Notes: generated from the letters alone by a model not told the origin. A stretch of 12,385 nt of DNA from Nitrososphaeria archaeon (GCA_050011875.1 JBEKIG010000033.1:1-12385); one strand, 5' to 3'; shown: positions 1 through 12,385, counted from the first letter of the stretch. Numbers and translations: made by a program.

Positions 1-4
1 AAAC

Positions 5-36
5 TTTTAGGCGCGACACTCCGTTTACGCCTAAAA
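5..36. repeat. Left-end inverted repeat/hairpin
   Basis: TTTTAGGCG (5-13) and CGCCTAAAA (28-36) form a perfect 9-bp inverted repeat with a 14-nt spacer. A second small hairpin, TTTAGG-AAAA-CCTAAA, lies at 63-78. Confidence 0.75.
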
Positions 37-409: not shown

Positions 410-832
410 ATGGTTACTAAAACAGTTGACCAAGTCGTTGCTAAGTGGGCTCAAAATACCCAAAACGCAACTACTTACATGAAACAGGGAGTCCAAAACG
501 TCACGACAAACCCAATGGACAAAGCCGCTGCGGCTCTACCTAAAGCGTTAGCAAATTATAGCGCAAGGGTTAATGATGGTAGCATGGCCGCAAAGATGAA
601 AGCGGTTACTTTGCCACAGTGGCAAGATGCCATGATTAATAAGGGTATTCCGCGTGTCGCTCAAGGTGTGACTTCCGCAGTACCAAAAACAACCACAGCT
701 TTTGGCAAACTGTTGCCTTACATTGACAAAGGTCAAAAGATTGTTGAGTCTATGCCTAACACGTCATTAGTGGACAGCAAATCAAGGATGAACGCATTTT
801 TCGACCATATGGCCGCGTATCCTAAATCTTAA
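410..832 (+). CDS. Putative major nucleocapsid/DNA-binding virion protein (alpha-helical, SEV1 VP4-like by recollection)
   Basis: 140 aa, Ala/Gln/Lys-rich, helical pattern, net basic (17 K+R vs 8 D+E). First gene of the operon, with a GGTGA RBS. Notable segments: KW..GV..VT.NP..KAA, VTL.QW...MINKGIPR, MP..SL.D...RM. Family assignment is from memory, not a search. Confidence 0.6.
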   Translation: MVTKTVDQVVAKWAQNTQNATTYMKQGVQNVTTNPMDKAAAALPKALANYSARVNDGSMAAKMKAVTLPQWQDAMINKGIPRVAQGVTSAVPKTTTAFGKLLPYIDKGQKIVESMPNTSLVDSKSRMNAFFDHMAAYPKS

Positions 833-848
833 CTAAAGGTGACATAGC

Positions 849-1760
849 ATGTCAATAGTTATCCGTCCAGTTCTCCCGCCAACAACTCAAGCAGACTCAG
901 GCACAACCACTATACTAATCAGTGATAACGTTAAAGCTCACGGGTTTTTGTTAGAAATAACAAACGTGGGTGGAGCAACAGCCGGTCTTAACATAACTGA
1001 TATGATTTCTAATATTCAGTTACTAAAGAACGGCTCAGAGCAGATTGTTTACGGTTCAGCAAATGCGCTTAGATCAATAGCTCACGATGTTGGCGTTAAA
1101 TGTCCAAATGAGATATATAATCTAGCTGGTGGTGCTACTCAAACAATGGTTATCCCTATTCTATTTGGGGACGACCTAATTGATCCGAACCACTACCTAG
1201 ACTTGTCGCAAATCTCATTGCTGCAACTGATAATAACGTATGCGTTTACAATTGCTGTAACGGGATTCACAACGGGGACAGCTTCATTTGCTCTCTACGG
1301 CATATACGAATACGATCAGCCAATGGGTGCTTATCAAGGTTACATTCACACTAAGCAAGCAGACTCTTACGCTGCTGCTGCGAGCGGCAACCACACTACG
1401 TTGCTACCTACAACTACACAGCTTTCTAGTGTACATCTAATTTCAAACACCTATGCGGGCGACATTTCGACACCAATAGGTAATATTTTGTATAGAGCAA
1501 ATCAAGGACAGCGCATTTTTTGGAATGACACAGCCGCAAGGTTAAGACGTTATACACAAATGCTTAGTCCGGCCTATCCTTGGCTACACGCTAATGCTTT
1601 CGTTGCAGCAATACCAAATATTTGCTCCTTCTTCCACTCAGTAGGAGATAATGAAAGCTTAGACTTGACACCAAATGAATACTCTATGCTTGAATTGGTG
1701 CAGACGAATCAGAGCGCAACAGGTACGGTGCTAGTAATGTACCGTGAATTAGTGCAATAA
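849..1760 (+). CDS. Putative double-jelly-roll-like major capsid/structural protein
   Basis: 303 aa, beta-strand-rich, with two similar halves (ISNIQLLKNGSEQIVYGSANALR vs IGNILYRANQGQRIFWNDTAARLR; YLDLSQISLLQLIIT vs LDLTPNEYSMLELVQT), as expected for tandem jelly rolls. GGTGA RBS at 838-842; followed by a terminator-like hairpin. Confidence 0.55.
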   Translation: MSIVIRPVLPPTTQADSGTTTILISDNVKAHGFLLEITNVGGATAGLNITDMISNIQLLKNGSEQIVYGSANALRSIAHDVGVKCPNEIYNLAGGATQTMVIPILFGDDLIDPNHYLDLSQISLLQLIITYAFTIAVTGFTTGTASFALYGIYEYDQPMGAYQGYIHTKQADSYAAAASGNHTTLLPTTTQLSSVHLISNTYAGDISTPIGNILYRANQGQRIFWNDTAARLRRYTQMLSPAYPWLHANAFVAAIPNICSFFHSVGDNESLDLTPNEYSMLELVQTNQSATGTVLVMYRELVQ

Positions 1761-1791
1761 GTCCCCATCCCTTATTGCACTTTTTCATTTT
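1751..1791 (+). terminator. Intrinsic terminator-like hairpin after the first two genes
   Basis: Perfect 11-bp stem AGTGCAATAAG (1751-1761)/CTTATTGCACT (1771-1781), 9-nt loop TCCCCATCC, then TTTTCATTTT. Confidence 0.75.
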
Positions 1792-1803
1792 ATTGGAGCC
1801 ATC

Positions 1804-2169
1804 ATGGTGACTGAGCAAGTAAATGTAGTGCCGTTTAACTTAGATTTTAATGGAGTCTTACAAGTAGCAAGCCAACAACTTGTATTTTTGCCACTAGCTG
1901 AATCGCGATTCTGTTATATAAATCGCATAAGCGGTTATAACAATGCGGCAAACACGTATAACGGGATTGTTGGAATTATTGACAGCGGAGGAAACTACGT
2001 CCCAATATCAATAACTGCATGCGCTCAAAATGCTGCTTTTAACACACAAATAGACAAAACAATAATACCAACTTTAGGCGCTTATTGGCAGTTTACCGCT
2101 ACGTCTTACCCAGTAACACCACAAGCCATGATAGATGGCTACTATTATGACATAGTGGAGAGTGAATAA
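1804..2169 (+). CDS. Hypothetical beta-rich protein (possible single-jelly-roll minor virion protein)
   Basis: 121 aa with alternating hydrophobic strands; GGAG at 1795-1798; lies in the structural block. Confidence 0.6.
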   Translation: MVTEQVNVVPFNLDFNGVLQVASQQLVFLPLAESRFCYINRISGYNNAANTYNGIVGIIDSGGNYVPISITACAQNAAFNTQIDKTIIPTLGAYWQFTATSYPVTPQAMIDGYYYDIVESE

Positions 2170-2205
2170 GCTATTAAATAAAGCCGTCATTCTTCGGCTC
2201 GCAAG

Positions 2206-2832
2206 ATGCAATATATTTACTATGCAAGTACGCCAATTAACACGCCGATTGCGAGCCCATTGGTTACTGATTGCGCTCTCACTAACGGCTTTATTACAAA
2301 TATGCTTATTGTTATACCTGCGGGTTGCGTCGGTTTAGTAGGCGTCCAATTACAATATGCAAGCCGTCAATTTTTCCCAATAAATTTAAACAAGTGGCTT
2401 ACTGGTGATGGACTAGAAGTTATTTTTGGCGAGAATTTAGACTTAACAACGGGATCAAGAACAGTACAACTACTGACTTATAATTTAGACGACACATACC
2501 AACACACCGTTGAGGTTGTGTTTACTGTTGAACAGATGCCTAGTGAAACCACGACTCAAATCGGTGGAGGTGGAGGGGTTGAAGTTACAGAGATCACAAC
2601 CACTATAACAAATAATGACACAAACCCACTACCTCCATCAAACCAATATCAATGTAAAGACGGTTCATGGGTTGATGATCCCTCTAAATGTCCAGAAACA
2701 CCAACCCCAAGTCCAGAACCAACACCAACACCAACACCACCACCAACACCACCACCAACACCACCACCAACACCACCACCAACACCACCACCAATAAAAA
2801 TTAGTATATCTGAGTTAATGCTATTGATGTGA
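2206..2832 (+). CDS. Hypothetical virion protein: beta-sandwich N-domain, Gly/Thr linker, Cys-pair motif, Pro/Thr tail
   Basis: 208 aa. The N-terminal ~110 aa are beta-rich (IPAGCVGLVGVQL...WLTGDG...YNLDDTYQH), followed by G6, CKDGSWVDDPSKCP, (TPPP)5 and a short hydrophobic end. Confidence 0.7.
   Translation: MQYIYYASTPINTPIASPLVTDCALTNGFITNMLIVIPAGCVGLVGVQLQYASRQFFPINLNKWLTGDGLEVIFGENLDLTTGSRTVQLLTYNLDDTYQHTVEVVFTVEQMPSETTTQIGGGGGVEVTEITTTITNNDTNPLPPSNQYQCKDGSWVDDPSKCPETPTPSPEPTPTPTPPPTPPPTPPPTPPPTPPPIKISISELMLLM
2719..2793 (+). repeat. Coding tandem repeat (CCAACA)n then (ACACCACCACCA)x5 encoding a Pro/Thr linker
   Basis: Five perfect 12-nt units at 2734-2793, preceded by 6-nt CCAACA units. 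Confidence 0.95.
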
Positions 2833-2836
2833 TGAT

Positions 2837-3226
2837 ATGGTTATAAATTCACTTCGTGATATAGCCGGTTGTACGCCATGGCGTTATTCTTCAACAAATA
2901 CTTATAATGACCAAATTCAACATTTTATCACAATCATCACAGTAGATAGCGATAAAGTTTTACAACTAACGCATCTTGATTGGAGAGTTTATGCGGGAAG
3001 CAGTACAGGAGTATTCCGAATATCTGATTCAGATGCTTCGTTTGTTTGTAGTTTATATACTGCTTATCAAATACAATCAGGTTCATCATTAGACATGATG
3101 TTAAACGTATTTTTAGATAAGAATATAAGTTTATATGGTGTTGTTCAAGCAAACGATACTCCGTTCACTTTAGCTCTTAATTTTCATGGTCTAATGTATA
3201 AACTAGGTGAAGGGGTGCTTGATTAA
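2837..3226 (+). CDS. Hypothetical beta-rich protein (possible single jelly roll)
   Basis: 129 aa, strand-like pattern; its stop codon directly abuts the next ATG. Confidence 0.6.
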   Translation: MVINSLRDIAGCTPWRYSSTNTYNDQIQHFITIITVDSDKVLQLTHLDWRVYAGSSTGVFRISDSDASFVCSLYTAYQIQSGSSLDMMLNVFLDKNISLYGVVQANDTPFTLALNFHGLMYKLGEGVLD

Positions 3227-4090
3227 ATGTCTTCAGGAGCGCCGGACTATGATAAAACAAGGCAAGTTTTATCATCTGACATTGTAACAGCGTTAAACAC
3301 GCTAAATACATCTATAAATAACCTTAATACTGAATTTACAGGTCAAATTAATACCGATTTGGTCAACTTACAAACAGCACTTAATAACGATATAACTGCT
3401 TTACAAACAGCTACTCATGCTTATTTAAAACAACTAGCTGTGCGTTTAAACGCCCTACCTAACCCAACAGATACAGGTGATGTATTTTTAAGTATTTGTG
3501 ATTCTATTTGTTATGCTTCGAGCATGTGGCTTTTACCGGCATCAGGAGGTTATATAGTACCATCAACAAAATATGGTCAATTTAATAGACCATCTTTAAA
3601 AGTAGTGACAAGCTCAACAATAAATGATACAGGTGGGTTAATATTTAATTTCTTGCCAACAAGTGTTGGAGTTATTGGTTTCGCAGGATACTTTATTGGA
3701 TACACCTATAACGCCTTAATCAACATTATAATAAGTCATACAATCTCTGGAAATAACTACACATACGGGCTTAAAGTTAATTTAAATGGTGGAGCTGTTG
3801 CTTATTGGGGTTCAGATAGCGCTTGGCATTCTGGTGGGACAATCCCAATATATAACGGCGCTGGTATGCCTTTTTCTATTAAAATAACTATTGATTTAGC
3901 TGCACACAAATATGGTCACTTATACTTAGGTGGTGACATGGTTTTAGATATGACCGCTTATTCATTTAGTTATGGAGCCGGTTCAAATCCAGACTCTACT
4001 TTAATAGAATGTTTTATAAGCAATATCGCCGCTTCATCTCAAACAATTTATATACAGGACGCTGTATTAACAACAAATGAGGTTCTTTAA
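3227..4090 (+). CDS. Putative spike/receptor-binding protein (coiled-coil stalk plus lectin-like beta-sandwich head)
   Basis: 287 aa. N-terminal GAPDY, heptad-like L/I/N/T segment at about aa 19-76 (IVTALNTLNTSINNLNT...), then a Gly/Tyr/Ser-rich beta domain. Confidence 0.55.
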   Translation: MSSGAPDYDKTRQVLSSDIVTALNTLNTSINNLNTEFTGQINTDLVNLQTALNNDITALQTATHAYLKQLAVRLNALPNPTDTGDVFLSICDSICYASSMWLLPASGGYIVPSTKYGQFNRPSLKVVTSSTINDTGGLIFNFLPTSVGVIGFAGYFIGYTYNALINIIISHTISGNNYTYGLKVNLNGGAVAYWGSDSAWHSGGTIPIYNGAGMPFSIKITIDLAAHKYGHLYLGGDMVLDMTAYSFSYGAGSNPDSTLIECFISNIAASSQTIYIQDAVLTTNEVL

Positions 4091-4297
4091 ATGGTAGCTT
4101 CAAAACCGATTTATTATAGTAAGACCTTTTGGCTAAGTGTTTTAACAGTGATTGCTGGAACTATACAGCTTATAATAGGACAAAACTTAGTTGCCGGAAC
4201 AGCATTAACATCTTTAGGTTACATCTACATGATTCTTAGATTTATGACAACTCAGCCGCTAGACGTTTTGCCTTCTGGTGGAATACCTCCGGCATGA
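4091..4297 (+). CDS. Small membrane protein with 2 predicted TM helices (virion membrane or holin-like)
   Basis: 68 aa. KPIYYSKTFW precedes a hydrophobic helix; a second helix ends in LRFMTTQP. GAGGT RBS 7 nt upstream. Confidence 0.7.
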   Translation: MVASKPIYYSKTFWLSVLTVIAGTIQLIIGQNLVAGTALTSLGYIYMILRFMTTQPLDVLPSGGIPPA

Positions 4298-4300
4298 CAA

Positions 4301-4495
4301 ATGAGAGCAATAAACCGTTTAGATGTGTTGATAATAAGCCTAGTTGTCATATTTGTAATAAACTTAGTCGCCGTTAGATACTCAGAACCGGAGGGGATAT
4401 TGATAACAGCAATGGGAACAATAGTAACTTTGACAGGTTATGCTTTCATTAGACCAATGGTTGTTAATGAATGTAACATGAACGGAGATAAATAA
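4301..4495 (+). CDS. Small membrane protein with 2 predicted TM helices
   Basis: 64 aa; hydrophobic stretches VLIISLVVIFVINLVAV and ILITAMGTIVTLTGYAFI. Confidence 0.65.
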   Translation: MRAINRLDVLIISLVVIFVINLVAVRYSEPEGILITAMGTIVTLTGYAFIRPMVVNECNMNGDK

Positions 4496-4674
4496 TGACA
4501 GATTGGCAAGTACAGTCAAGATATGATATAGCGCAATTAATAGCACTTGTGCATAGTGACATAAAGGACAATTCAAGCAACCAATTTAAGCAAGCTATAC
4601 TTTTTAAAGTTGGTGAGCATCTAGGGTTGGCCGCGTCTTACATGAGAGCAGTTGATACACAAGCAGACATTTAA
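4495..4674 (+). CDS. Hypothetical 59-aa protein (not in ORF track)
   Basis: MTDWQVQSRYDIAQLIALVHSDIKDNSSNQFKQAILFKVGEHLGLAASYMRAVDTQADI*. TAATG overlap with the upstream stop, GGAG at 4484-4487, and it fills the intergenic gap. Confidence 0.75.
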   Translation: MTDWQVQSRYDIAQLIALVHSDIKDNSSNQFKQAILFKVGEHLGLAASYMRAVDTQADI

Positions 4675-4686
4675 GGAGATTAATAA

Positions 4687-4905
4687 ATGGCAAGTGATGA
4701 ATACGAAATTGATGACTTACAACAGCGTAAACAGCTTGTAGGTGGTGGCTCACTAATAGACGTTATGCATGTAGATTATCACATGAAAAACGGCATGGTA
4801 GGTTTTGTTGATCTCCCCGTCGGAAAAGCCACAAAAGAAGCTATTGACGTTGCTATAAAATCAAAGATTCAAGCTGTTAATGATATATTGACGCTTGGAA
4901 AATGA
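4687..4905 (+). CDS. Hypothetical 72-aa protein
   Basis: AAGGAG RBS upstream; ATGA overlap with the next gene. Confidence 0.75.
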   Translation: MASDEYEIDDLQQRKQLVGGGSLIDVMHVDYHMKNGMVGFVDLPVGKATKEAIDVAIKSKIQAVNDILTLGK

Positions 4906-5696
4906 ACATTGAACAGGGCATTATTTTAGCCCTATTTTCTTGTATTACTATTCTTAATATTGATATTGGAGATTTTCAAAACTCCTTTAGACGTGCAATT
5001 CCCTCTATTTTTAACGCTGTTACCGATTGGTTTTGGAATTGGATAGTACAACCTATTGTTAACTTCATCAATATTGCTGAAAACGAAGCAAAAGACCTTG
5101 CGAACCAAGCCATAAATGGTGTTCAAGGTGCTCTTAATTGGGCAACCTCTGTTATGAACCAAGCATGGAATTGGGTTCAGTCCGCAATACAAACCACAGA
5201 AAACTTTGCCAACTCAGCAATAAACGATGTTATAAATTGGGCTAATAATACATGGAATTGGTTAAATCAATATAAAAACTTTATTTGGGCTATTTGTGTT
5301 ACTTACTTTAATAACCTTATAGCGTTTTGCACAACATATTGGAATAATTTTATTCATTTAGTTGGCGACTTATGGAATAATATTGTAGCGATTTGCACAA
5401 CATATTGGAATAATTTTATTCATTTAGTTGGCGACTTATGGAATAATAATTTTATTCATTTAGTTGGCGACTTATGGAATAATATTGTAGCGATTTGCAC
5501 AACTTACTGGAATAAGCTCATACAACTTTTAAGCGCTGATTGGTCTTTTATAATGAATCTTATTCATGATCCAATTAACACACTAAAAGACATTGTATTT
5601 TCCATATTGAAACAGTTTGCGATGGACTTTGCCATATTATGCGGTTGGATCATCACTGGACTTATGAATTTAAATGTAGATAAGATATTTAATTAA
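4902..5696 (+). CDS. Trp/Asn-rich amphipathic helical repeat protein (membrane-associated, tape-measure-like)
   Basis: 264 aa with hydrophobic N- and C-termini and an 11-residue aromatic periodicity (NNFIHLVGDLW / NNIVAICTTYW). Confidence 0.7.
   Translation: MNIEQGIILALFSCITILNIDIGDFQNSFRRAIPSIFNAVTDWFWNWIVQPIVNFINIAENEAKDLANQAINGVQGALNWATSVMNQAWNWVQSAIQTTENFANSAINDVINWANNTWNWLNQYKNFIWAICVTYFNNLIAFCTTYWNNFIHLVGDLWNNIVAICTTYWNNFIHLVGDLWNNNFIHLVGDLWNNIVAICTTYWNKLIQLLSADWSFIMNLIHDPINTLKDIVFSILKQFAMDFAILCGWIITGLMNLNVDKIFN
5310..5510 (+). repeat. Coding tandem repeat of 33-nt units (A'-B-A-B-[N]B-A)
   Basis: A 54-nt stretch is identical at 5328-5381 and 5394-5447 (66-nt period). AATAATTTTATTCATTTAGTTGGCGACTTATGG occurs three times. 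Confidence 0.95.
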
Positions 5697-5698
5697 CC

Positions 5699-7570
5699 AT
5701 GAATCAGCAAGACTTATGGAATGAGCTTCTAGGCGCTGCTACTTCAGTTAGCGATAAGGGAATACAAATAGCCGACACATTAAAGCCGACCTTTAGCGAC
5801 CTTATTAGCGGCAACCCACATACGTTAGCGGAATGGCTTATTTTCATACTTTTTAGTCCGGTTTTAGTGCCTATGATTCTTGGCGCTGACATTTATCAGT
5901 GGTTAGCAATTAGAATACCGATGATCCAAAGGCAAATACTAAAAATGGTTGGACTTGACCGCGTTAGTGCTTTTGGTGCTGCTTTACAACGTTGCGCGGG
6001 TGACGTGCCATTTATGGAGCCTATCTACTCAGCTTTAACAAATCCATCAAATGAATTTGATCTAGGTATAATGGAAGCTGCGGCAAGTGGAGCGGTTTCA
6101 ACGGGTTTAGGACGTATATTAGACCCTTTAACTAGGCCTATTGGCTTTTGTATGGAGCGCATGCTTATAAATAATCTAATTGAGCCAATGCAAGCAGCGC
6201 AACTTATACACAAGGGTTTGAACGTACCCGGAGGTATTTCGTTTATAGGTGAAAGTTACGGTTATGATAGCGCCGGAACTCAAGCATTATTAGATGTTAC
6301 AAGAGAGCCCGCCGGTTTTATGGATACTCTCTTATTGTTAAATCGTGGTTATATTGACGAAGGAACAGCGTATAATTGGATTAGATTGAACGGTTTAGAC
6401 GATGATATTGCTCAACCTCTCATAAATCTTAGGTGGCATGTTCCTAATGTTGGTGATGTTCAATCATATATTGCTGGACTTGGATACTCTCAAGACCGTA
6501 TTGACCAATTTGGGTTAGAAGACGAATATCCGCAAGACGCTAATCAATGGCTACAAAAGAACGGAGCAACCGACGAAGTAGGCAAAAAGGCTTGGATCGC
6601 TCACTGGTCAATGCCACAAAACGGGATACTATTAGACGCTTATCATAGGAGGATCATAAGCAAAGATGAATTGTATGCCGGAATGGCTGTTAATGGTGTG
6701 CCTCCTGTCATGCGTTCAGTACTCGAGCAACAGGGTGTAACGTTACCCATGCGCCGTCAAATCAATATGATGTTTAAGTACGGTGTGATTGATCAGAACT
6801 ATGCTAATGACATCTATTTAAGGTATGGATTTTCAGAAGATGATGCAAACCGATTAACAGCATTAACTGTTAAGTCAGTAAACCCTTATGAAGCTGGAAA
6901 TCTAGCTAGTGACGCAACAACGGCTTATGAGGATGATCTAGTCGATTATGACACAGCAAAAACATGGTTAATGCAAGCCGGACATAGTGAATGGGAAGCT
7001 GGTTTACATTTACTTGGATCAACACATAAGAAGGGTGCGGCAGTTCTTAAAACGGTTGAATCTTACGTTCATGATGCTTACATAAACGGAGATTTAACAT
7101 TAGACGAAGCAGTTAATCAAGTTTTACAATATGGTGAAATGAGCGAACGCGCGAAGGTGTTGAGGGAATTATGGACGGAAGAAAAAATACACACGATAAA
7201 ACATGTGAGCGAATCGGATTCTCGGAGTGGGTATCGTTTGGGACTCATAAATTCGAGTCAGTTACGGACGAATTTAGAAATGCTGCACTACGACGAAGAT
7301 TCTATAAGCGTTATAATCGCATTAGAAAATGCAACCATGCAAAAGCCACAAGCAAACGTTATCGCTCCGATAACAACTTCTAGCGGCAAGGCTAAGTCAT
7401 TCACAAAAGCAGAGCTTAAAAAGATGTACATAGACGGGATCATTGACAGTAATACATGGTACGATGAAATGCTATCATTAGGTTACACTGACGCGCAAGT
7501 TGCCGCGTATGCTCAACTTATGATAGCTGGTACAAGCACAACAGGAGGTTCGACAAGTGCCGCGACCTAA
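5699..7570 (+). CDS. Large helical-repeat virion protein with an N-terminal hydrophobic segment
   Basis: 623 aa. TM-like WLIFILFSPVLVPMILGA, eight degenerate repeats of the form hY..G.I(D/S)...........G(Y/F), and a central WIAHWSMP motif. Confidence 0.7.
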   Translation: MNQQDLWNELLGAATSVSDKGIQIADTLKPTFSDLISGNPHTLAEWLIFILFSPVLVPMILGADIYQWLAIRIPMIQRQILKMVGLDRVSAFGAALQRCAGDVPFMEPIYSALTNPSNEFDLGIMEAAASGAVSTGLGRILDPLTRPIGFCMERMLINNLIEPMQAAQLIHKGLNVPGGISFIGESYGYDSAGTQALLDVTREPAGFMDTLLLLNRGYIDEGTAYNWIRLNGLDDDIAQPLINLRWHVPNVGDVQSYIAGLGYSQDRIDQFGLEDEYPQDANQWLQKNGATDEVGKKAWIAHWSMPQNGILLDAYHRRIISKDELYAGMAVNGVPPVMRSVLEQQGVTLPMRRQINMMFKYGVIDQNYANDIYLRYGFSEDDANRLTALTVKSVNPYEAGNLASDATTAYEDDLVDYDTAKTWLMQAGHSEWEAGLHLLGSTHKKGAAVLKTVESYVHDAYINGDLTLDEAVNQVLQYGEMSERAKVLRELWTEEKIHTIKHVSESDSRSGYRLGLINSSQLRTNLEMLHYDEDSISVIIALENATMQKPQANVIAPITTSSGKAKSFTKAELKKMYIDGIIDSNTWYDEMLSLGYTDAQVAAYAQLMIAGTSTTGGSTSAAT

Positions 7571-7676
7571 ATTTCAATTACTAGATAAAGACGTTAAAGA
7601 CGCATTGGCAAAGCTAGACGAGCTATTACCAAAGCTTACCGATAAACAAAAAGAAGCAATAAATGAAGCTACGTAA
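7557..7676 (+). CDS. Hypothetical 39-aa helical peptide (not in ORF track)
   Basis: GGAGGT at 7544-7549, GTG start 7 nt later, MPRPKFQLLDKDVKDALAKLDELLPKLTDKQKEAINEAT*. It fills the gap and overlaps the polymerase 3' end by 8 nt. Confidence 0.65.
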   Translation: MPRPKFQLLDKDVKDALAKLDELLPKLTDKQKEAINEAT

Positions 7677-9567
7677 ATTCTTCAATAACTATCGGATACA
7701 CCCATCCTTCAGCATTGACAAAGCCCTTATTATAGACTCTCTCCATTTTCTTAATCATAGGCACGATCTCGACAGATCCATATTTATTTTCACAAATCGT
7801 CTTATGCATGCTTTGCCATTGCATTATCTCATAGGTGTTCTTATCGAGCTGCTTTGAGTCTTTAGGCACACCCTTTAGCTTTTCTTCTCCAGCAAAAAGG
7901 TAGTCCTTTAAGCCGCGTATAACCATGTTTATTCCGATTTTCTCAATTTTCCAGTAACCCAATTTGCTGTCACTAATAAAGGGATCAAGATTATGCTTAC
8001 CCAAATCTGTAACATACAGAGAATCAGAATCGCAATAAATCCAATTACGGTTGCCAGCAATTTGCATAGCTTGTAGCATCTTAACCCGTAAATACGAAGT
8101 AACGAAGGCCGATATAAGGGGAAAACTGTGTGTAGCTCCTTCTTTTTTGACGTATTCATATTCAAGCCCTCCAAAATGGATAACTTTCTTGACGGTTAAT
8201 GATTCAATGTCTCCGACATATTCAGAACCATCAGCATGACCGCCGTTTTCCCGTTTTGGTTGCCATTCTTTGCGATATTCTCCAAATTTGCCATATAGTG
8301 AGTTTAGCAGATACTTATAAATTAATGCTAAAGCGGGGTTTTGATTCTCAATGGCCGCTCGCCTCTTTCTGTATAGCTCTGTAACATAGTCTTTGAACAA
8401 TAATCGAGCTTTATACACAAACAAGCGCTTGATACGTCTAACGTGCTTATTTTCGATTGCAACTTTAAGCTCCGGCTCGCATAACCATGTAACAAATCGA
8501 CCAACGGGAAAAAGGAGACGATCATTTTCGTGTTTTGGATAATACGGTTTACGAGTATCAATTTCGACCTCCGCGAAACAACAGTGTTTATTATCAAGGT
8601 TTGTCACATCCTCAATTTTAGGTTTAAGACATTCTTTTACAAACTCAACAGGAAACTTATTATCACGCATGACGCTTGGATAAGCGCTGTTTATATCCAA
8701 ATTCCATATCTTGCCTTGATAGTTTCCAATAAAAGCGGCTTCAGTTCGTCCACCATAATAAGCTTGTCTCTCTAACTGTTTTTGATTTAGTCCTTGATTT
8801 GTCTTTATCGGTTCATTCAAATATAATTGTTTAAATATTGCTAGGGCTTGACTTGCTATGGTGGGTTTGAAGGCGCCAAAATTGTTTTCCAACAATACAT
8901 TTCGCCATTTTCGCATAACCTCATTTAGAATATAAACATCGTTTTTACAATAATCCTCAAGACTTTTTTCCTTGACGTGCCTAAAATCAACAGAGCCTTT
9001 TTCAAGGTTGAAAGCTGTCGCTAACGCTGAAAGCGGCATCTTAAAAAAGTTAAGGGTGTCGATCATTAAGATCGTGTGAGCACCCTTAGTATATTTTATA
9101 ACGGTGTTTCCTTTTCGATCCGCTATGGTGTTTGTACCCCAATCGTGTCCAATAAGGGTTTTGTGGATTCCAGTGATGCTCCAATCGTATCCAATATTGT
9201 GAGCAAAGCAGTAGAGCTTACTTCCTTGCTTACTGTACGCTTCAAGGAGATCGTAAAATTGTTCAGCATCGGTAAATCTACGGTAATCTGATTCGTATTG
9301 TCGTCCGTTGGGATAAAAGCGAGTGAAAAGCCCGTATCCGACTCTAAAAGTTTGACGTTGTATTCCATTTTCTAAATCCTCAATATCTGCTTCTGTGTCG
9401 AACACAAACATAAGCTTAGGAAGCTTCTTGCTTGTGTGTTCTTTAGTCGGTTTAATCTCTCTTATTTTAATCCTATTTGATTGTTGCTGTGATTTTTGTA
9501 GCTGTATAATAGCTACCTCACTGTTATGCTGTATTTCTGAAAGCTTCGGTAACGTCACCGCTTGCAA
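7669..9567 (-). CDS. polB: Protein-primed family B DNA polymerase (pPolB); start codon uncertain
   Basis: ExoI FDTE, ExoII AHNIGYD, IDTLNFF, ExoIII YCKND, TIASQA, YYGGRTE, motif A DINSAYP, TPR1-like insert (LLFPVG..TWLCEPEL), motif B KYLLNSLYGKFG, TPR2-like insert, motif C YCDSDS, KDY and KLKGV. Confidence 0.97.
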   Translation of the reverse strand: MQAVTLPKLSEIQHNSEVAIIQLQKSQQQSNRIKIREIKPTKEHTSKKLPKLMFVFDTEADIEDLENGIQRQTFRVGYGLFTRFYPNGRQYESDYRRFTDAEQFYDLLEAYSKQGSKLYCFAHNIGYDWSITGIHKTLIGHDWGTNTIADRKGNTVIKYTKGAHTILMIDTLNFFKMPLSALATAFNLEKGSVDFRHVKEKSLEDYCKNDVYILNEVMRKWRNVLLENNFGAFKPTIASQALAIFKQLYLNEPIKTNQGLNQKQLERQAYYGGRTEAAFIGNYQGKIWNLDINSAYPSVMRDNKFPVEFVKECLKPKIEDVTNLDNKHCCFAEVEIDTRKPYYPKHENDRLLFPVGRFVTWLCEPELKVAIENKHVRRIKRLFVYKARLLFKDYVTELYRKRRAAIENQNPALALIYKYLLNSLYGKFGEYRKEWQPKRENGGHADGSEYVGDIESLTVKKVIHFGGLEYEYVKKEGATHSFPLISAFVTSYLRVKMLQAMQIAGNRNWIYCDSDSLYVTDLGKHNLDPFISDSKLGYWKIEKIGINMVIRGLKDYLFAGEEKLKGVPKDSKQLDKNTYEIMQWQSMHKTICENKYGSVEIVPMIKKMERVYNKGFVNAEGWVYPIVIEEFT

Positions 9568-9997
9568 TGTTTATGTCACTCCCTTCGTCAGTCACTTTGA
9601 TTGATTCGACAGCGTTCTTAATTTGCTCTTTAGTTAATATGGCGTTTGACCAAAGAGGATAATACCCTTGATCCAAAAGGTAGCCATCAGAGTTTGTTAT
9701 TGTCGCTTCAACCTTATACATATAGTCTTTTTGACCATTAGCGTTCATTTGAAGCATATTATCCTGTTGAATTGGTGAACCACTAGGCAAATCTCGTAAA
9801 GATTGAATAACCGCCGCTTGTGCATCTGCTTCTCTTGAAATAGCTAAAGAGTCTGTTTTTCGTATGCCTAAATCTGTTCCTATTGTGTTATTATATAGAG
9901 CACTTCGGCTTTCGCCGTTCAGAATACCAGCTCTATAATAATTGTTGAGCATATTAGAAACATATGCTCGTTCTGTTTCAGAGCTTGTAAATGGCAT
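9524..9997 (-). CDS. Hypothetical protein; terminal protein candidate
   Basis: 157 aa, directly upstream of and co-oriented with pPolB, the position of terminal protein genes in phi29, PRD1 and Bam35. Positional inference only. Confidence 0.45.
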   Translation of the reverse strand: MPFTSSETERAYVSNMLNNYYRAGILNGESRSALYNNTIGTDLGIRKTDSLAISREADAQAAVIQSLRDLPSGSPIQQDNMLQMNANGQKDYMYKVEATITNSDGYLLDQGYYPLWSNAILTKEQIKNAVESIKVTDEGSDINIASGDVTEAFRNTA

Positions 9998-10006
9998 ATT
10001 ACGCCA

Positions 10007-10789
10007 TTAATCAAAAAGCAAATTCCAATAAGGGGTTTTATTTACTGGTTGAGGTGTTGGCGTTGGCGTTGGCTGAGATCCACCTTTAAGCCTAACGTCC
10101 ATTGTTCTAGTTTCAGGTGGAAAACGTGCTTGTAAACCTTGAATAATTCCCATAGTGTTGTTTATTATATCGTTAGTGCTGTAAATGCAACCCGTCCAGA
10201 AACAGAAACCCGAAAACTTACCTCTAGCTGCAATTACACCATTAGCGATATTTATGTAGTCATTAAGGTTTCCTTTTCCTTGTGCAACCAATACGCCAAC
10301 TTCACTACACCCTAGATCCCAAGACTTTACACAAACGTTAATAGTGGCTTGTACGTACATATTATAATTTGTATAAGGCTCAAGATAAGCAACCCAATTT
10401 GTCTTTTTACCGGCTCCAAGACGATAAGCTAAGAATGGATCAAGATCGCCTTCTCCGTATGAACCTCCCCAAGTTTCAAAGGCTAAATGAGAGGCTAAAG
10501 CGTTTGCTTCCCCTTCTTCTGTTGATTCGCCACCAACAGCTTGAAATCCCAAGCTTCTAAGGTAAGCGCCAACAGTATTTGGATCTTCTCCGGCAGAGTT
10601 ACTTGTGCCATCGTTACCGCTCATTACCATAGGTGTAAGCCCTAATTGATTGCATGTGCCTACAATTCCAAGGTTTGCTTGACGATAGCCATGACAACCT
10701 GTGCCAACGTCTATAAAATGATTATTTTTTATTAAATTCCAGTCACCAATAGAACCGGCTACCACTTGATAAACATAATTTGCTGACAT
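10007..10789 (-). CDS. Hypothetical alpha/beta protein with C-terminal Pro/Thr linker (possible glycoside-hydrolase-like enzyme)
   Basis: 260 aa with alternating strand/helix pattern and acidic residues after predicted strands (GFQAVGGE, VAYLEPY, FSGFCFW); PTPTPTPQP tail; GAGGT RBS 6 nt upstream. The ORF is solid; the function is speculative. Confidence 0.5.
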   Translation of the reverse strand: MSANYVYQVVAGSIGDWNLIKNNHFIDVGTGCHGYRQANLGIVGTCNQLGLTPMVMSGNDGTSNSAGEDPNTVGAYLRSLGFQAVGGESTEEGEANALASHLAFETWGGSYGEGDLDPFLAYRLGAGKKTNWVAYLEPYTNYNMYVQATINVCVKSWDLGCSEVGVLVAQGKGNLNDYINIANGVIAARGKFSGFCFWTGCIYSTNDIINNTMGIIQGLQARFPPETRTMDVRLKGGSQPTPTPTPQPVNKTPYWNLLFD

Positions 10790-10800
10790 TATCTAACCTC

Positions 10801-10852
10801 TTAAAAACAATAAGACAAGTAAAAGGTGGAGGTGAAACCCCTTTTACTTGTC
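10801..10852 (-). terminator. Terminator-like hairpin on the minus strand
   Basis: Perfect 13-bp stem GACAAGTAAAAGG (10814-10826)/CCTTTTACTTGTC (10840-10852), 13-nt loop, followed on the - strand by TTATTGTTTTT; starts 10 nt after the stop of 10863-11033. Confidence 0.75.
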
Positions 10853-10862
10853 ATTTATTCCG

Positions 10863-11033
10863 TTATACTTCAAAATACATATAGTAGTATTGCCATGCGG
10901 CGTGTAAATGAGCTGTTGCTTGAATCAATGAAGCTTTCCAAATATCATCAGGTGCTATTGCGCTAAGATGATTCCACAAAAGGCTATAAGCCTCTCCGAA
11001 AAGCGCATCAATCTGATCGACTGTTGATGCCAT
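10863..11033 (-). CDS. Hypothetical 56-aa protein (not in ORF track)
   Basis: MASTVDQIDALFGEAYSLLWNHLSAIAPDDIWKASLIQATAHLHAAWQYYYMYFEV*. GAGGAAGTGA upstream; ends just before the hairpin. Confidence 0.7.
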   Translation of the reverse strand: MASTVDQIDALFGEAYSLLWNHLSAIAPDDIWKASLIQATAHLHAAWQYYYMYFEV

Positions 11034-11304
11034 TTTCTGTCACTTCCTCAATTTCTTCTTTAGGTTCTTCAACTTCCGGCTCTACTGGTGGAGTTGTTAA
11101 AACGTCAATAACTCGATCAATCATAGAGTCACATAATACCATGACACCTTCGTATAAAGGATCATCGTTATTTGTACAAAATGTGTCTAACGTGTGCTTA
11201 ACGCTGACAAGTTCATCAAGAACTGTATCCGGCATATCATGCGCCCATATCGTTGTTTGAGCACAAAAACTTAGTAGGTTTGTTGGATCTATTGAATTTA
11301 TCAT
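11008..11304 (-). CDS. Hypothetical acidic protein
   Basis: 98 aa with Glu-rich tail PVEPEVEEPKEEIEEVTE; GGAGGT RBS; starts 1 nt after the upstream stop. Confidence 0.75.
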   Translation of the reverse strand: MINSIDPTNLLSFCAQTTIWAHDMPDTVLDELVSVKHTLDTFCTNNDDPLYEGVMVLCDSMIDRVIDVLTTPPVEPEVEEPKEEIEEVTENGINSRSD

Positions 11305-11305
11305 A

Positions 11306-11545
11306 TTAACCTCCGCTTAAATATTCACGCATCCATTTATAGCCCTCTATTACTTCACCATATCCGCGAAGCATAAGCAAAAGACGACCTCTTGGTACGA
11401 TATATGCGTCGCTATCTAAATCTCTATCGTGTTGAAATCTCTCCAATAATAAGCTGATCTCGTTCTCTTGCCTTTTGAGCATTTCAATTCGACGCTTCCA
11501 TTTATTTTTGGTATCGCGCCTCTTTTGCGCAGCTGTGTAAACCAT
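11306..11545 (-). CDS. Hypothetical helical protein with basic N-terminus (possible nucleic-acid binding)
   Basis: 79 aa; QKRRDTKNKWKRRIEMLKRQ; the ATG abuts the upstream TAA. Confidence 0.7.
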   Translation of the reverse strand: MVYTAAQKRRDTKNKWKRRIEMLKRQENEISLLLERFQHDRDLDSDAYIVPRGRLLLMLRGYGEVIEGYKWMREYLSGG

Positions 11546-11824
11546 TTAAAAGCTCCCAGACGTTATATATTGCATCTTCTTCCATATACCCTGTATTGTT
11601 GCGTCTAAATCATCAAGAGTTGCAATAACAAACTCATTAAAAACAGCACCTTTGACGGCGTTGTGATTTTGGTCAAGGTGTTGCTTCAGTGATTTAACTT
11701 CCCGCCTCACATTGCAAGCTGATTCATTTATGTAATATAAGTCAATGCAAAGATCATATTTGTTTGCTTCGTAGTAATCTAGCAATAACTCCAAGCTTTT
11801 CTTGTGTGCTTCTAAATCGGACAT
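11546..11824 (-). CDS. Hypothetical coiled-coil protein
   Basis: 92 aa; strong RBS AAGGAGGT 7 nt before the ATG. Confidence 0.8.
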   Translation of the reverse strand: MSDLEAHKKSLELLLDYYEANKYDLCIDLYYINESACNVRREVKSLKQHLDQNHNAVKGAVFNEFVIATLDDLDATIQGIWKKMQYITSGSF

Positions 11825-11865
11825 TTATACGACCTCCTTTTTCTAAAATGGCGTTTTTCAATCCT

Positions 11866-12222
11866 CTATATTGGTCTTGCTGTTGAAGTGGGGTTACTTA
11901 TTGGTCTAGGTGTTGTAGTCGGCGGGATAGTTGGCAAATTACCTTTATATTCGGGTAAATCAGGCATACGCACACCATTATTAGGTGAGTTATAAACCGT
12001 TTGAACAGGTGTCGGTTTAGCTGTTGGTGCTGTTATTGGTGTTTTAACGCTTGTTTGTGACATCTTTGTTTGTTGTGTATTAACCGTAACTTGTTTTATT
12101 GGTGTCACGATGTTTTTATTTTGGTCGTGTAACGGTACAATATTTACACATGCTGTAACACCAACCATTAGCATAACCACGATAACAGATATGCCCGTTA
12201 TCACATATCGGTTTAAGTTCAT
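11866..12222 (-). CDS. Putative secreted or membrane-anchored Pro/Thr-rich (lipo)protein
   Basis: The ATG at 12222 has GAGGT 8 nt upstream, so it is preferred over the track's TTG at 12252. MNLNRYVITGISVIVVMLMVGVTAC resembles a signal peptide with a lipobox-like Cys; the remainder is low-complexity P/T. Confidence 0.65.
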   Translation of the reverse strand: MNLNRYVITGISVIVVMLMVGVTACVNIVPLHDQNKNIVTPIKQVTVNTQQTKMSQTSVKTPITAPTAKPTPVQTVYNSPNNGVRMPDLPEYKGNLPTIPPTTTPRPISNPTSTARPI

Positions 12223-12345
12223 TACTTTCCACCTCATAACATTTTGTTTCAATTTGTATAGTTCGTGTCATAATAGGAGTATATTTATCTCATACTATAT
12301 AGATGTGACGGTTTTGCTCACTTTCCAATGGAAACCGACCTTTTT

Positions 12346-12377
12346 TTATAGGAGCGGACTTTAGGGCGCGCCTATAA
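12346..12377. repeat. Right-end inverted repeat/hairpin
   Basis: TTATAGGAGCG (12346-12356) and CGCGCCTATAA (12367-12377) are complementary at 10/11 positions, with a 10-nt spacer. Confidence 0.75.
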
Positions 12378-12385
12378 GATTGTGT

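Follow-up and report, generated by a model that had tools for sequence, protein, structure and literature searches.

Which lineage does this small viral genome belong to, and how could its capsid be filled with DNA when no packaging ATPase is apparent? The window, the whole 12,385-nt stretch of DNA analysed here, is the entire contig C33, which was assigned to an archaeal genome bin. A preliminary description had listed a protein-primed PolB (pPolB), a basic 140-aa protein, a two-halved beta protein of 303 aa, membrane proteins and no Walker A motif, and each of these was borne out. Its reading of them as an undescribed combination of modules in a new virus lineage did not stand, as set out below.

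We compared the contig with four public runs from four studies; the virus recurs in peat and wetland metagenomes. Two near-identical metagenome contigs, L003 and L004, have the same start as the window and reach 3 nt further at the left. Their first 20 nt match the reverse complement of window positions 12365-12384 at 17 of 20 positions. No contig ran past either end in any of the four runs, no joint between the ends was seen in any of them, and the contigs ended at 12385, 12384, 12379 and 12231 in window coordinates. The contig is an essentially complete linear dsDNA genome of about 12.39 kb, whose terminal inverted repeats, some 19 nt long, are imperfect (Table 1). Because the window is an entire contig, its ends pair as an inverted repeat and no contig overruns them, an ATPase gene in missing flanking sequence is unlikely.

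Table 1 Features of the window, in order along the contig.
Coordinates	Strand	Feature	Evidence or remark
1..17		Left terminal inverted repeat arm	Window starts 3 nt short of L003/L004
410..832	+	cons1-like small basic protein (ORF410), 140 aa, pI 9.90	Directly 5' of MCP gene
849..1760	+	Predicted DJR major capsid protein (MCP; ORF849), 303 aa	Predicted fold and profile links
1804..2169	+	Acidic protein, 121 aa	Same position in L007 (47% identity) and L005 (38%)
2206..2832	+	ORF2206, 208 aa	Conserved N-domain of ~110 aa, Pro/Thr-rich linker, hydrophobic C-terminus
2837..3226	+	Acidic protein, 129 aa	Weak homologues in L005 and L007 (24-26% identity)
3227..4090	+	Protein of 287 aa	C-terminal part shared with L005 and L007
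4091..4495	+	Two small membrane proteins, 68 and 64 aa	Hydropathy
4495..4905	+	Two small soluble proteins, 59 and 72 aa	
4902..5696	+	Membrane-anchored, tape-measure-like protein (ORF4902), 264 aa	Hydrophobic N- and C-terminal segments
5699..7570	+	Conserved protein (ORF5699), 623 aa	One hydrophobic segment, N-terminal
7669..9567	-	pPolB, 632 aa	PF03175
9524..9997	-	Protein of 157 aa (ORF9524)	Directly upstream of pPolB
10007..10789	-	Protein of 260 aa (ORF10007)	Pro/Thr-rich C-terminal stretch
10863..12252	-	Five small ORFs, 56-128 aa	Last with membrane anchor
12365..12385		Right terminal inverted repeat arm	End match; contig stops in four runs

Structure prediction from a 116-row alignment modelled ORF849 as two beta-barrels (pLDDT 87.6, pTM 0.85), in agreement with the two halves recognised earlier. 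A shallow profile (A1), made from nothing but ORF849, failed to match the MCP of Huginn virus. The MCP profile A3 matched it with a probability of 91.9% (hhalign; E 7e-7, 207 collinear columns) and matched the MCP of vir530 with a probability of 100%. Direct comparison with the vir556 MCP gave 29% identity over 163 aa (E 2.5e-7). The predicted fold and these profile links indicate that ORF849 encodes a DJR MCP.

The genes that follow on the same strand include several candidates for structural roles. The 121-aa protein had no family match in Pfam or PHROG, and its position makes it a possible minor capsid protein. ORF2206, a candidate vertex (penton) protein with a PT repeat at 2690-2811, has an N-domain conserved in L005, L007, L014, L015, L016, vir530 and vir556 (alignment A4). 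The 287-aa protein, a candidate spike or receptor-binding protein, aligned with L005 and L007 over its C-terminal part only (29-35% identity), and its residues 14-82 gave weak Pfam matches to helical families. ORF4091 keeps 66-73% identity in L005 and L007, and ORF4687, one of two small soluble proteins without a family match, is also conserved in both. ORF4902 contains tandem repeats of 66 and 36 nt at 5277-5524, and its best PHROG tape-measure family scored E 3.5e-9. Homologues of ORF5699 were found in L007 (53% identity), L016, L015 and L017, with a weak match to Huginn virus at 5589-6308 (E 6e-4); it had no Pfam, PHROG or PDB match, and its Atlas neighbours were all viral hypothetical proteins, in large clusters. 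Windows with a hydropathy above 1.6 were present in ORFs 4091, 4301, 4902, 5699 and 11866, and the small hydrophobic ORFs suggest that an internal membrane probably lies under the capsid.

The gene at 7669-9567 encodes a pPolB, with matches to PF03175 (E 3.9e-47, 161.7 bits for a cut-off of 25.8) and phrog_1907 (E 5.3e-60). Its best match was in the relative L016 (tblastn, 29% identity, E 2.9e-62); identity was 30% to LCBv1, a 6-kb archaeal virus (E 6e-39), 28-29% to MetSV and 27% to Bam35. ORF9524 had no Pfam or PHROG match. The Bam35 record annotates a genome terminal protein beside the polymerase in a similar gene order, and by this analogy of position ORF9524 is a candidate terminal protein. 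ORF10007 had no match in Pfam, PHROG or PDB, and the five small ORFs at 10863-12252, without a significant family match, are presumed to be early or regulatory genes.

The archaeal bin is a weak link to a host, and the possibility that a bacterial virus was mis-binned, which would make the archaeal framing wrong, is a serious one, if somewhat below even. Four proteins related to ORF410 (34-41% identity) are encoded on contigs of 8.7-15.3 kb from bins of Dormiibacterota, Chloroflexota, Actinomycetota and Thermoanaerobaculia; L016, which holds the best match to the window pPolB and has a collinear gene order, points the same way. However, the binning of short viral contigs is no more trustworthy for these bacterial relatives, and an intermixing of archaeal and bacterial labels was already seen by Yutin et al. 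(PMC5894146). A search of 60 genomes akin to the bin (1 of the same genus, 8 of the same family, 51 of the same class) yielded no credible MCP relative, only a single match of 18.7 bits. No CRISPR array turned up in a crude scan, and a lone short match (24/25 nt) lay in non-repeat DNA. The tetranucleotide correlation of 0.78 was the third lowest among the 33 contigs that reach 10 kb or more, in a bin with 4.83% contamination, although the GC content of the window is near that of the bin (38.7% versus 40.8%). Shine-Dalgarno-like motifs preceded 13 of 20 window ORFs, as against about 21% of 403 long bin ORFs in a crude sample. On the archaeal side, the closest annotated MCPs come from viruses with Methanosarcinales recorded as hosts, and the pPolB is nearer to those of archaeal viruses (LCBv1, MetSV) than to those of tectiviruses. 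Family searches revealed no peptidoglycan hydrolase encoded in the window, whereas the N-terminal part of ORF4902 matches that of a 364-aa L016 protein whose end is a Peptidase_M23 domain (E 3.8e-22). The presence of this peptidase in a collinear relative and its absence from the window genome is a new observation.

We scanned all six frames for the Walker A pattern [AG]x4GK[ST]. The only match was antisense, at 4264-4287 in a 61-codon frame; no real ORF of the window contained the motif, and no P-loop family was matched at E <= 1 among the 20 ORFs searched against Pfam. The identical scan did detect ORF13 of MetSV and found the motif in no real ORF of vir530, vir556, Huginn virus, L015, L016 or L017. 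Motif and HMM searches indicate that the genome lacks a gene for an FtsK/HerA-type or any other P-loop ATPase. Packaging could still be served by an ATPase of the host, or by an enzyme that such searches do not recognise.

If the genome is encapsidated without an ATPase, the small basic protein whose gene immediately precedes that of the MCP is a plausible candidate for the task. ORF410 (net charge +9) and the 68-aa membrane protein ORF4091 are the only basic proteins of the plus-strand block at 410-7570; unlike ORF410, the window's remaining structural proteins are acidic. Its Atlas model has a pLDDT of 0.83 and a pTM of 0.46. Fifteen homologues were found, and an alignment of 13 sequences of the family (A2) was compared with single proteins by hhalign. 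It matched the 140-aa protein of Huginn virus (probability 85%, E 6.4e-6, columns 42-99 against 41-100, collinear) and, more weakly, the upstream proteins of vir530 (E 2e-4) and vir556 (E 4.8e-4); as profile-versus-single-sequence comparisons, these links have modest probabilities of 85%, 47% and 32%. All 20 family members compared have 135-141 aa, a pI of 9.7-11.9 and a net charge of +4 to +11. The basic charge of all 20 small proteins is a new observation. Taken with its position, the profile matches mark ORF410 as the hallmark small protein of the Odin group.

We propose ORF410 as a candidate DNA-condensing or genome-encapsidation factor; that this putative function extends to binding DNA and substituting for the packaging motor is a tentative idea, which we hold at a little under an even chance. 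Its basic charge would suit it just as well to binding the membrane or the acidic inside of the shell. ORF410 would then not bind DNA and would act in assembly, in scaffolding or as a membrane-to-capsid linker, a role like that of PRD1-like minor proteins under the shell, and the genome would enter otherwise, for example by a host ATPase or by terminal-protein-driven co-assembly. In keeping with this, the MCP is itself acidic (pI 5.06, net charge -10), a profile search with ORF410 across the PDB sequences returned no hit better than E 0.38, with no match to SPV1, SEV1 or SIRV2 and no resemblance in sequence to a DNA-binding or nucleocapsid protein of solved structure, and the wider cons1 family is described as having no conserved polar residues (PMC5894146). 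We nevertheless consider it rather unlikely. A positive net charge is retained in all 20 members despite an identity of only 30-40%, K12, K78, R82, K93 and R126 are invariant or nearly so in A2, and, as the group is described in PMC5894146, a protein of this type co-occurs with the loss of the ATPase throughout. A third reading, active packaging by a divergent NTPase hidden, for example, in ORF5699 or ORF10007, both conserved or large and without assigned function, is very improbable given the searches above, the purely hypothetical viral neighbours of ORF5699 and an absence of ATPases across the Odin group that was reported after a specific search (PMC5894146).

With ORF410 as the DNA-condensing candidate, the pPolB would copy the genome from its inverted termini, primed by a terminal protein that may be ORF9524. 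MCP trimers, probably with an internal membrane beneath them, would build the capsid around the DNA or together with it, with no motor to fill it, and the uniformly basic 140-aa protein would neutralise or condense the DNA, or tether it to the shell; a role of cons1 in DNA packaging was already proposed by Yutin et al. 2018 (PMC5894146). Weighing both parts together, an Odin-type, ATPase-less pPolB virus with a motor-replacing small protein is likely the best explanation of the whole. A bolder version seems doubtful to us: the 140-aa protein would be a new viral kind of DNA-condensing protein, allowing a DJR capsid with a membrane to form on a linear, protein-primed genome in the absence of a packaging motor, and the peat lineage would be a new family-level branch of the ATPase-less assemblage with a non-methanogenic archaeal host.

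Among known systems, FLiP (Finnlakeviridae) differs from the window in its circular ssDNA genome. Tectiviridae (PRD1, Bam35, GC1) have linear genomes of about 15 kb with inverted repeats, a pPolB preceded by a terminal-protein gene and many small membrane proteins. Tectiviruses encode an FtsK/HerA-type packaging ATPase beside the structural genes, a family-defining feature. The window shares their DJR MCP, pPolB and inverted terminal repeats but no such ATPase was found in it, and no sequence similarity was found beyond the pPolB. MetSV has a linear genome of about 10.6 kb with imperfect inverted repeats, and the pPolB was its only match to the window; it has a putative ATPase (ORF13), which the window lacks, and its two capsid proteins are small (102 and 146 aa).

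Chaacviridae (Coyopavirales) are viruses of ANME-1 archaea with uniform linear genomes of 10-11 kb, inverted repeats, a pPolB, a DJR MCP and a Huginn-like protein upstream (PMC9894754, Laso-Perez et al. 2023). The same paper describes their MCP as without sequence similarity to classical MCPs and their pPolB module as invertible relative to the structural genes. Members have a capsid protein of MCP-1 or MCP-2 type and share a proteome with the type genomes OP548099, OP548100 and OP413841. Compared by description only, the window is alike in its linear dsDNA, inverted terminal repeats, DJR MCP, upstream Huginn-like protein and a pPolB opposite to the structural genes. It is larger (12,385 nt plus 3 nt), and it recurs in peat and wetland metagenomes and was assigned to a bin in which mcrA was not found, whereas chaacviruses come from deep-sea hydrothermal sites. 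In vir530 and vir556 (BK063674, BK063675; host recorded as Methanosarcinales) the MCP belongs to the same sequence family (25-29% identity), a basic protein of 139-140 aa is encoded directly upstream of it, the ORF2206 N-domain has a homologue and no ATPase motif was found in real ORFs; their genomes are circular, 18.8-19.5 kb long and without an annotated pPolB.

The Odin group, defined in PMC5894146 and also in PMC6260650, is described in the former as having a DJR MCP always preceded by cons1, a sporadic PolB and a 'striking' lack of a packaging ATPase; the genomes measure 7-11 kb, and their terminal repeats are either inverted or direct. The window has the DJR fold, a Huginn-related MCP (at the profile level only), the cons1-like upstream protein, no detectable ATPase and inverted terminal repeats, in a genome slightly above that size range. 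In Huginn virus (OM716001), the Odin prototype, a 140-aa 'conserved odinarchaeal virus protein' precedes a 304-aa DJR MCP, as 140 aa precede 303 aa here; both genomes are small, with terminal repeats and no packaging ATPase. The Huginn genome is 7.4 kb, circular and without pPolB, and kinship of the two MCPs is visible at the profile level alone. The combination of modules thought to be undescribed is thus on record in the descriptions of the Odin group (PMC5894146) and Chaacviridae (PMC9894754) and in the Huginn gene pair, and we reject an undescribed lineage on these grounds; synteny with an already described group, which the preliminary description had itself named as counting against novelty, was largely found, and gene order is collinear even with more distant relatives such as L016. 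Collectively, the window is very probably a tailless icosahedral virus of the Odin-group DJR-MCP assemblage (Huginn virus, Chaacviridae and vir530-vir556 type), ATPase-less and with a pPolB. This group is already described but uncultured, and the genome is a new, divergent member of it and not a new kind of virus.

[quoted passage not shown] A model built from a 116-row alignment of the family (pLDDT 87.6, pTM 0.85) gave full-length fold matches to PBCV-1, FLiP and others, and the best 13 rows of the fold search were all DJR capsid-type proteins; Foldseek returned PRD1 P3 at E 1.3e-14 and, against BFVD, the Wip1 MCP at E 2.9e-17. This model replaced a first AF2 model made with 8 close homologues (pLDDT 54.2, usable for residues 1-155 only), with which the fold search spanned the first barrel alone. 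A spindle-virus reading, in which the two-helix ORFs 4091 and 4301 would be His1-/SSV-type capsid proteins, was rejected once ORF849 had been established as a DJR MCP. Neither ORF849 nor ORF410 produced a tblastn match at E ≤ 1 in 50,697 phage records. A first profile search of genome contigs with a shallow ORF849 profile found no relatives, nor did IMG/VR scans with ORF849, the ORF410-family alignment and the protein-primed PolB (pPolB); a PDB profile search with the 116-row alignment gave nothing significant. Searching 1.84 billion cluster representatives with a profile recovered 187 MCP-family proteins at E ≤ 1e-3 and 59 at E ≤ 1e-10, mostly of 365-390 aa. One distant member (P0011) matched the protein annotated as "major head protein, DJR fold" in vir556 and vir530, whose MCPs share 25-29% identity with ORF849. 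The family profile matched the vir530 MCP with 100% probability and the MCP of Huginn virus, the Odin-group prototype, with 91.9% probability across 207 columns; hhalign of the shallow profile with the Huginn MCP gave no match.

The 140-aa product of ORF410 is basic (pI 9.90, net charge +9). Its family comprised 15 homologues, and an alignment of 13 sequences was collinear with the Huginn 140-aa protein (probability 85%, E 6.4e-6, columns 42-99 against 41-100) and, more weakly, with the proteins encoded upstream of the vir530 and vir556 MCPs. All 20 members compared, among them those of Huginn, vir530 and vir556 and of the relatives from bacterial bins, were 135-141 aa long with a pI of 9.7-11.9 and a net charge of +4 to +11, and the basic charge was kept at only 30-40% identity. 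The structural proteins neighbouring ORF410 in the window are acidic. On sequence grounds, the conserved charge would fit neutralisation of DNA and, equally, binding to an acidic shell. A PDB profile search with the family alignment found nothing significant, and no homology to the DNA-wrapping proteins of SPV1, SEV1 and SIRV2 was detected at the sequence level. Complex prediction for the MCP and ORF410 (score 0.00, mark 0.32) says nothing for or against an interaction.

The polymerase matched PF03175 (E 3.9e-47) and phrog_1907 (E 5.3e-60), and its identity to pPolBs other than those of chaacviruses and wyrdviruses was only 25-30%. A MetSV-like reading was dropped because the pPolB alone matches and MetSV has a putative ATPase. 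The MetSV record (MF186604) is filed under Tectiviridae in GenBank, though its capsid proteins are of 102 and 146 aa, and its pPolB is split across two frames, giving two tblastn pieces. In a six-frame scan of the window, the sole Walker A match was antisense and lay in a 61-codon frame; Pfam searches (E ≤ 1) assigned none of the 20 ORFs to a P-loop family. Real ORFs of the relatives compared, vir530 and vir556 included, likewise contained no Walker A motif, and the identical scan did detect MetSV ORF13. Hydrophobic segments were found in ORFs 4091, 4301, 4902, 5699 and 11866. Each component listed in the preliminary description, that is a pPolB, a 140-aa basic protein, a two-halved beta protein of DJR type, membrane proteins and ORFs free of Walker A, was borne out. 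The FtsK/HerA packaging ATPase was long believed to be the invariable partner of the DJR capsid protein. To our knowledge, the chief exception to this pairing among dsDNA viruses is the Odin group, of which we know no member that has been cultured or studied structurally.

ORF4902 matched phage tape-measure families (best E 3.5e-9). Its tandem repeat is about 96 nt longer in L003, a near-identical contig, so the repeat number varies between populations; the repeat was also the break point for contigs of all four public runs aligned to the window. ORF5699 falls into large clusters, one of them of 548 members, that consist of hypothetical proteins of viruses. Its homologues in relatives have 446-841 aa and a piece of it weakly matches Huginn 5589-6308; the gene is thus conserved in the virus group, with no assigned function. 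PDB profile searches with the ORF2206 N-domain alignment, ORF10007 and ORF5699 gave nothing significant.

Features of the window and gene order of the collinear relative L016
Feature	Position	Strand	Remarks
Gene block 1	410-7570	+	converges on block 2
Gene block 2	7669-12252	-	converges on block 1
Pro/Thr-rich linker, 12-nt periodic repeat	2690-2811		in ORF2206; contigs of public runs also break there
66-nt and 36-nt tandem repeats	5277-5524		in ORF4902, membrane-anchored
ORF5699	5699-7570		623 aa
Pro/Thr-rich linker near C-terminus	ORF10007 (10007-10789)
L016 gene order			140-aa protein, 361-aa MCP, ORF2206 N-domain homologue, 364-aa protein, 794-aa ORF5699 homologue, inverted pPolB

The 20 plausible genes lie in two converging blocks, and no tRNA gene or Rfam match was detected in the window. 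Two near-identical metagenome contigs, L003 (99.3-99.5% identical) and L004 (99.9%), start 3 nt ahead of base 1, and their first 20 nt match the reverse complement of 12365-12384 at 17 of 20 positions; the molecule therefore ends in short, imperfect inverted repeats. In 9 public runs from 9 studies, labelled as peat/wetland metagenomes, at least 96% of the sampled words of the window were present; 7 of these runs are possible sources of the window DNA. Contigs from four of the nine runs were aligned to the window. None crossed either end and no joints were seen in any of the four; the left-hand contig ends lay at positions 1, 10, 40 and 91, the right-hand ones at 12385, 12384, 12379 and 12231. 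Given these ends and the inverted termini, the genome is linear and lacks a few bases at most; on the evidence of contigs, it is not circular and not integrated. A packaging ATPase concealed in missing flanks, named beforehand as an observation that would overturn the ATPase-less reading, is thus very unlikely. Across runs X1, X7, X8 and X9 (four studies, metagenomes dated 2017-2025) the genome differed at 0-7 positions only, and the population in peat/wetland metagenomes is therefore very uniform. No RNA dataset was among the sequencing runs listed as containing the window sequence. The same few starting bases occur in three distant relatives from different bins (L015:1-6, L016:1-6, L017:1-4), which suggests that these contigs, too, start where their genomes do and that the end sequence is conserved; the right ends of these contigs are incomplete and the identity concerns left ends.

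Three close relatives (contigs L005, L006 and L007) share the gene order of the window, ORF410 - MCP - 1804 - 2206 - 2837 - 3227 - 4091 ... 4902 - 5699 - pPolB. Searching species-representative genomes with the ORF410-family alignment yielded four further contigs, which measure 8.7-15.3 kb and come from bins of Dormiibacterota, Chloroflexota, Actinomycetota and Thermoanaerobaculia. Collinear with the window, L016 (10.1 kb) has a pPolB 29-30% identical to that of the window. The ORF2206 N-domain was also found in vir530 (BK063674) and vir556 (BK063675), both published as circular, in which the upstream 139-140-aa ORF is basic and annotated as hypothetical. These records presumably stem from a compendium paper on viruses of methanogens.

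Binning is the sole basis of the archaeal host assignment; the window spans contig C33 of the bin from end to end. The bin (2.64 Mb, 119 contigs, 97% complete, 4.83% contamination) contains a partial 16S gene scoring 777.5 bits with the archaeal SSU model against 574.7 with the bacterial one. The GC content of the window is similar to that of the bin, but its tetranucleotide correlation with the bin is low; among annotated matches, the best for the polymerase and the MCP come from archaeal viruses, whereas relatives of the window sit in bacterial bins and Shine-Dalgarno-like motifs are frequent in the window. No CRISPR array or spacer-like match was found, and 60 related genomes contained no credible MCP relative. 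In favour of an archaeal host, the window encodes no peptidoglycan hydrolase, whereas the ORF4902 counterpart in L016, from the Actinomycetota bin (L016:4888-5982), has a C-terminal Peptidase_M23 domain (E 3.8e-22). Weighing these points, we lean slightly towards an archaeon as the host. Judging from the sequences compared, presence or absence of the M23 peptidase may mark bacterial versus archaeal hosts inside one virus group. A search of the bin, which is 97% complete, gave no mcrA, so the host, if it is the bin's archaeon, is neither a methanogen nor ANME; a search for archaeal AmoA was also negative, yet control genomes were likewise silent, so this absence says nothing. Four other contigs of the bin (C24, C29, C28 and C32, 12-25 kb) are as atypical as the window (tetranucleotide correlation 0.75-0.83) and could represent additional mobile elements or DNA binned in error.

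The genes read directly comprise a DJR capsid gene, a pPolB with inverted termini, small membrane proteins and the hallmark basic protein, with no motor. Replication would begin at both ends, primed by a terminal protein for which ORF9524 is a candidate by position, directly upstream of the pPolB as in Bam35. MCP trimers would build the icosahedral shell, probably around an internal membrane that holds the products of ORF4091, ORF4301, ORF4902 and ORF5699, with vertices from the ORF2206 N-domain and possibly ORF1804, and a spike from ORF3227. The genome would be enclosed while the capsid assembles, aided by the 140-aa protein. The conserved charge offers new support for this aid and is a simple, testable property of the hallmark protein.

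Collectively, the data place the window as a new, quite divergent member of the known ATPase-less DJR viruses of Odin-group/chaacvirus type, probably distinct enough for a new family or subfamily. The Odin group, founded on the Huginn MCP (PMC9246712), was defined by Yutin et al. 2018. In the sections of that paper on the group (PMC5894146), its genomes are of 7-11 kb with inverted or direct repeats, absence of the packaging ATPase is the "striking feature", and a small conserved protein, encoded ahead of the MCP in all contigs, is judged "likely essential for DNA packaging"; the authors also predict a minor protein with a jelly-roll, note PolB sporadically, and suggest that the capsid assembles around the genome. 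The corresponding portion of a commentary restates these points (PMC6260650). For the Chaacviridae, the relevant passages of Laso-Perez et al. 2023 (PMC9894754) describe linear 10-11 kb genomes with inverted repeats and a pPolB, a DJR MCP found by structure prediction only, and a Huginn-like protein upstream of it. The combination that the preliminary description put forward as an undescribed lineage joining separate modules is thus already the published signature of this group of viruses (PMC5894146, PMC9894754). How Odin-group viruses encapsidate DNA is a real question, posed in 2018. The window leaves the present picture of virus evolution unchanged; it adds a complete, high-coverage, recurrent Odin-type example from peat/wetland metagenomes, evidence of a large MCP family (the 187 cluster representatives at E ≤ 1e-3) and a possible host-type marker in the M23 peptidase, which a relative from a bacterial bin encodes and the window does not. 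In Huginn virus (Ca. Odinarchaeum), a 140-aa "conserved odinarchaeal virus protein" is followed by a 304-aa DJR MCP, the same pair as in the window. In the GenBank records of vir530 and vir556, with Methanosarcinales as the recorded host, a 139-140-aa ORF lies directly upstream of the MCP, and both appear from their sequences to belong to the same ATPase-less assemblage. Unlike the Chaacviridae, reported from deep-sea ANME-1 settings, the window provides a pPolB variant from outside such settings.
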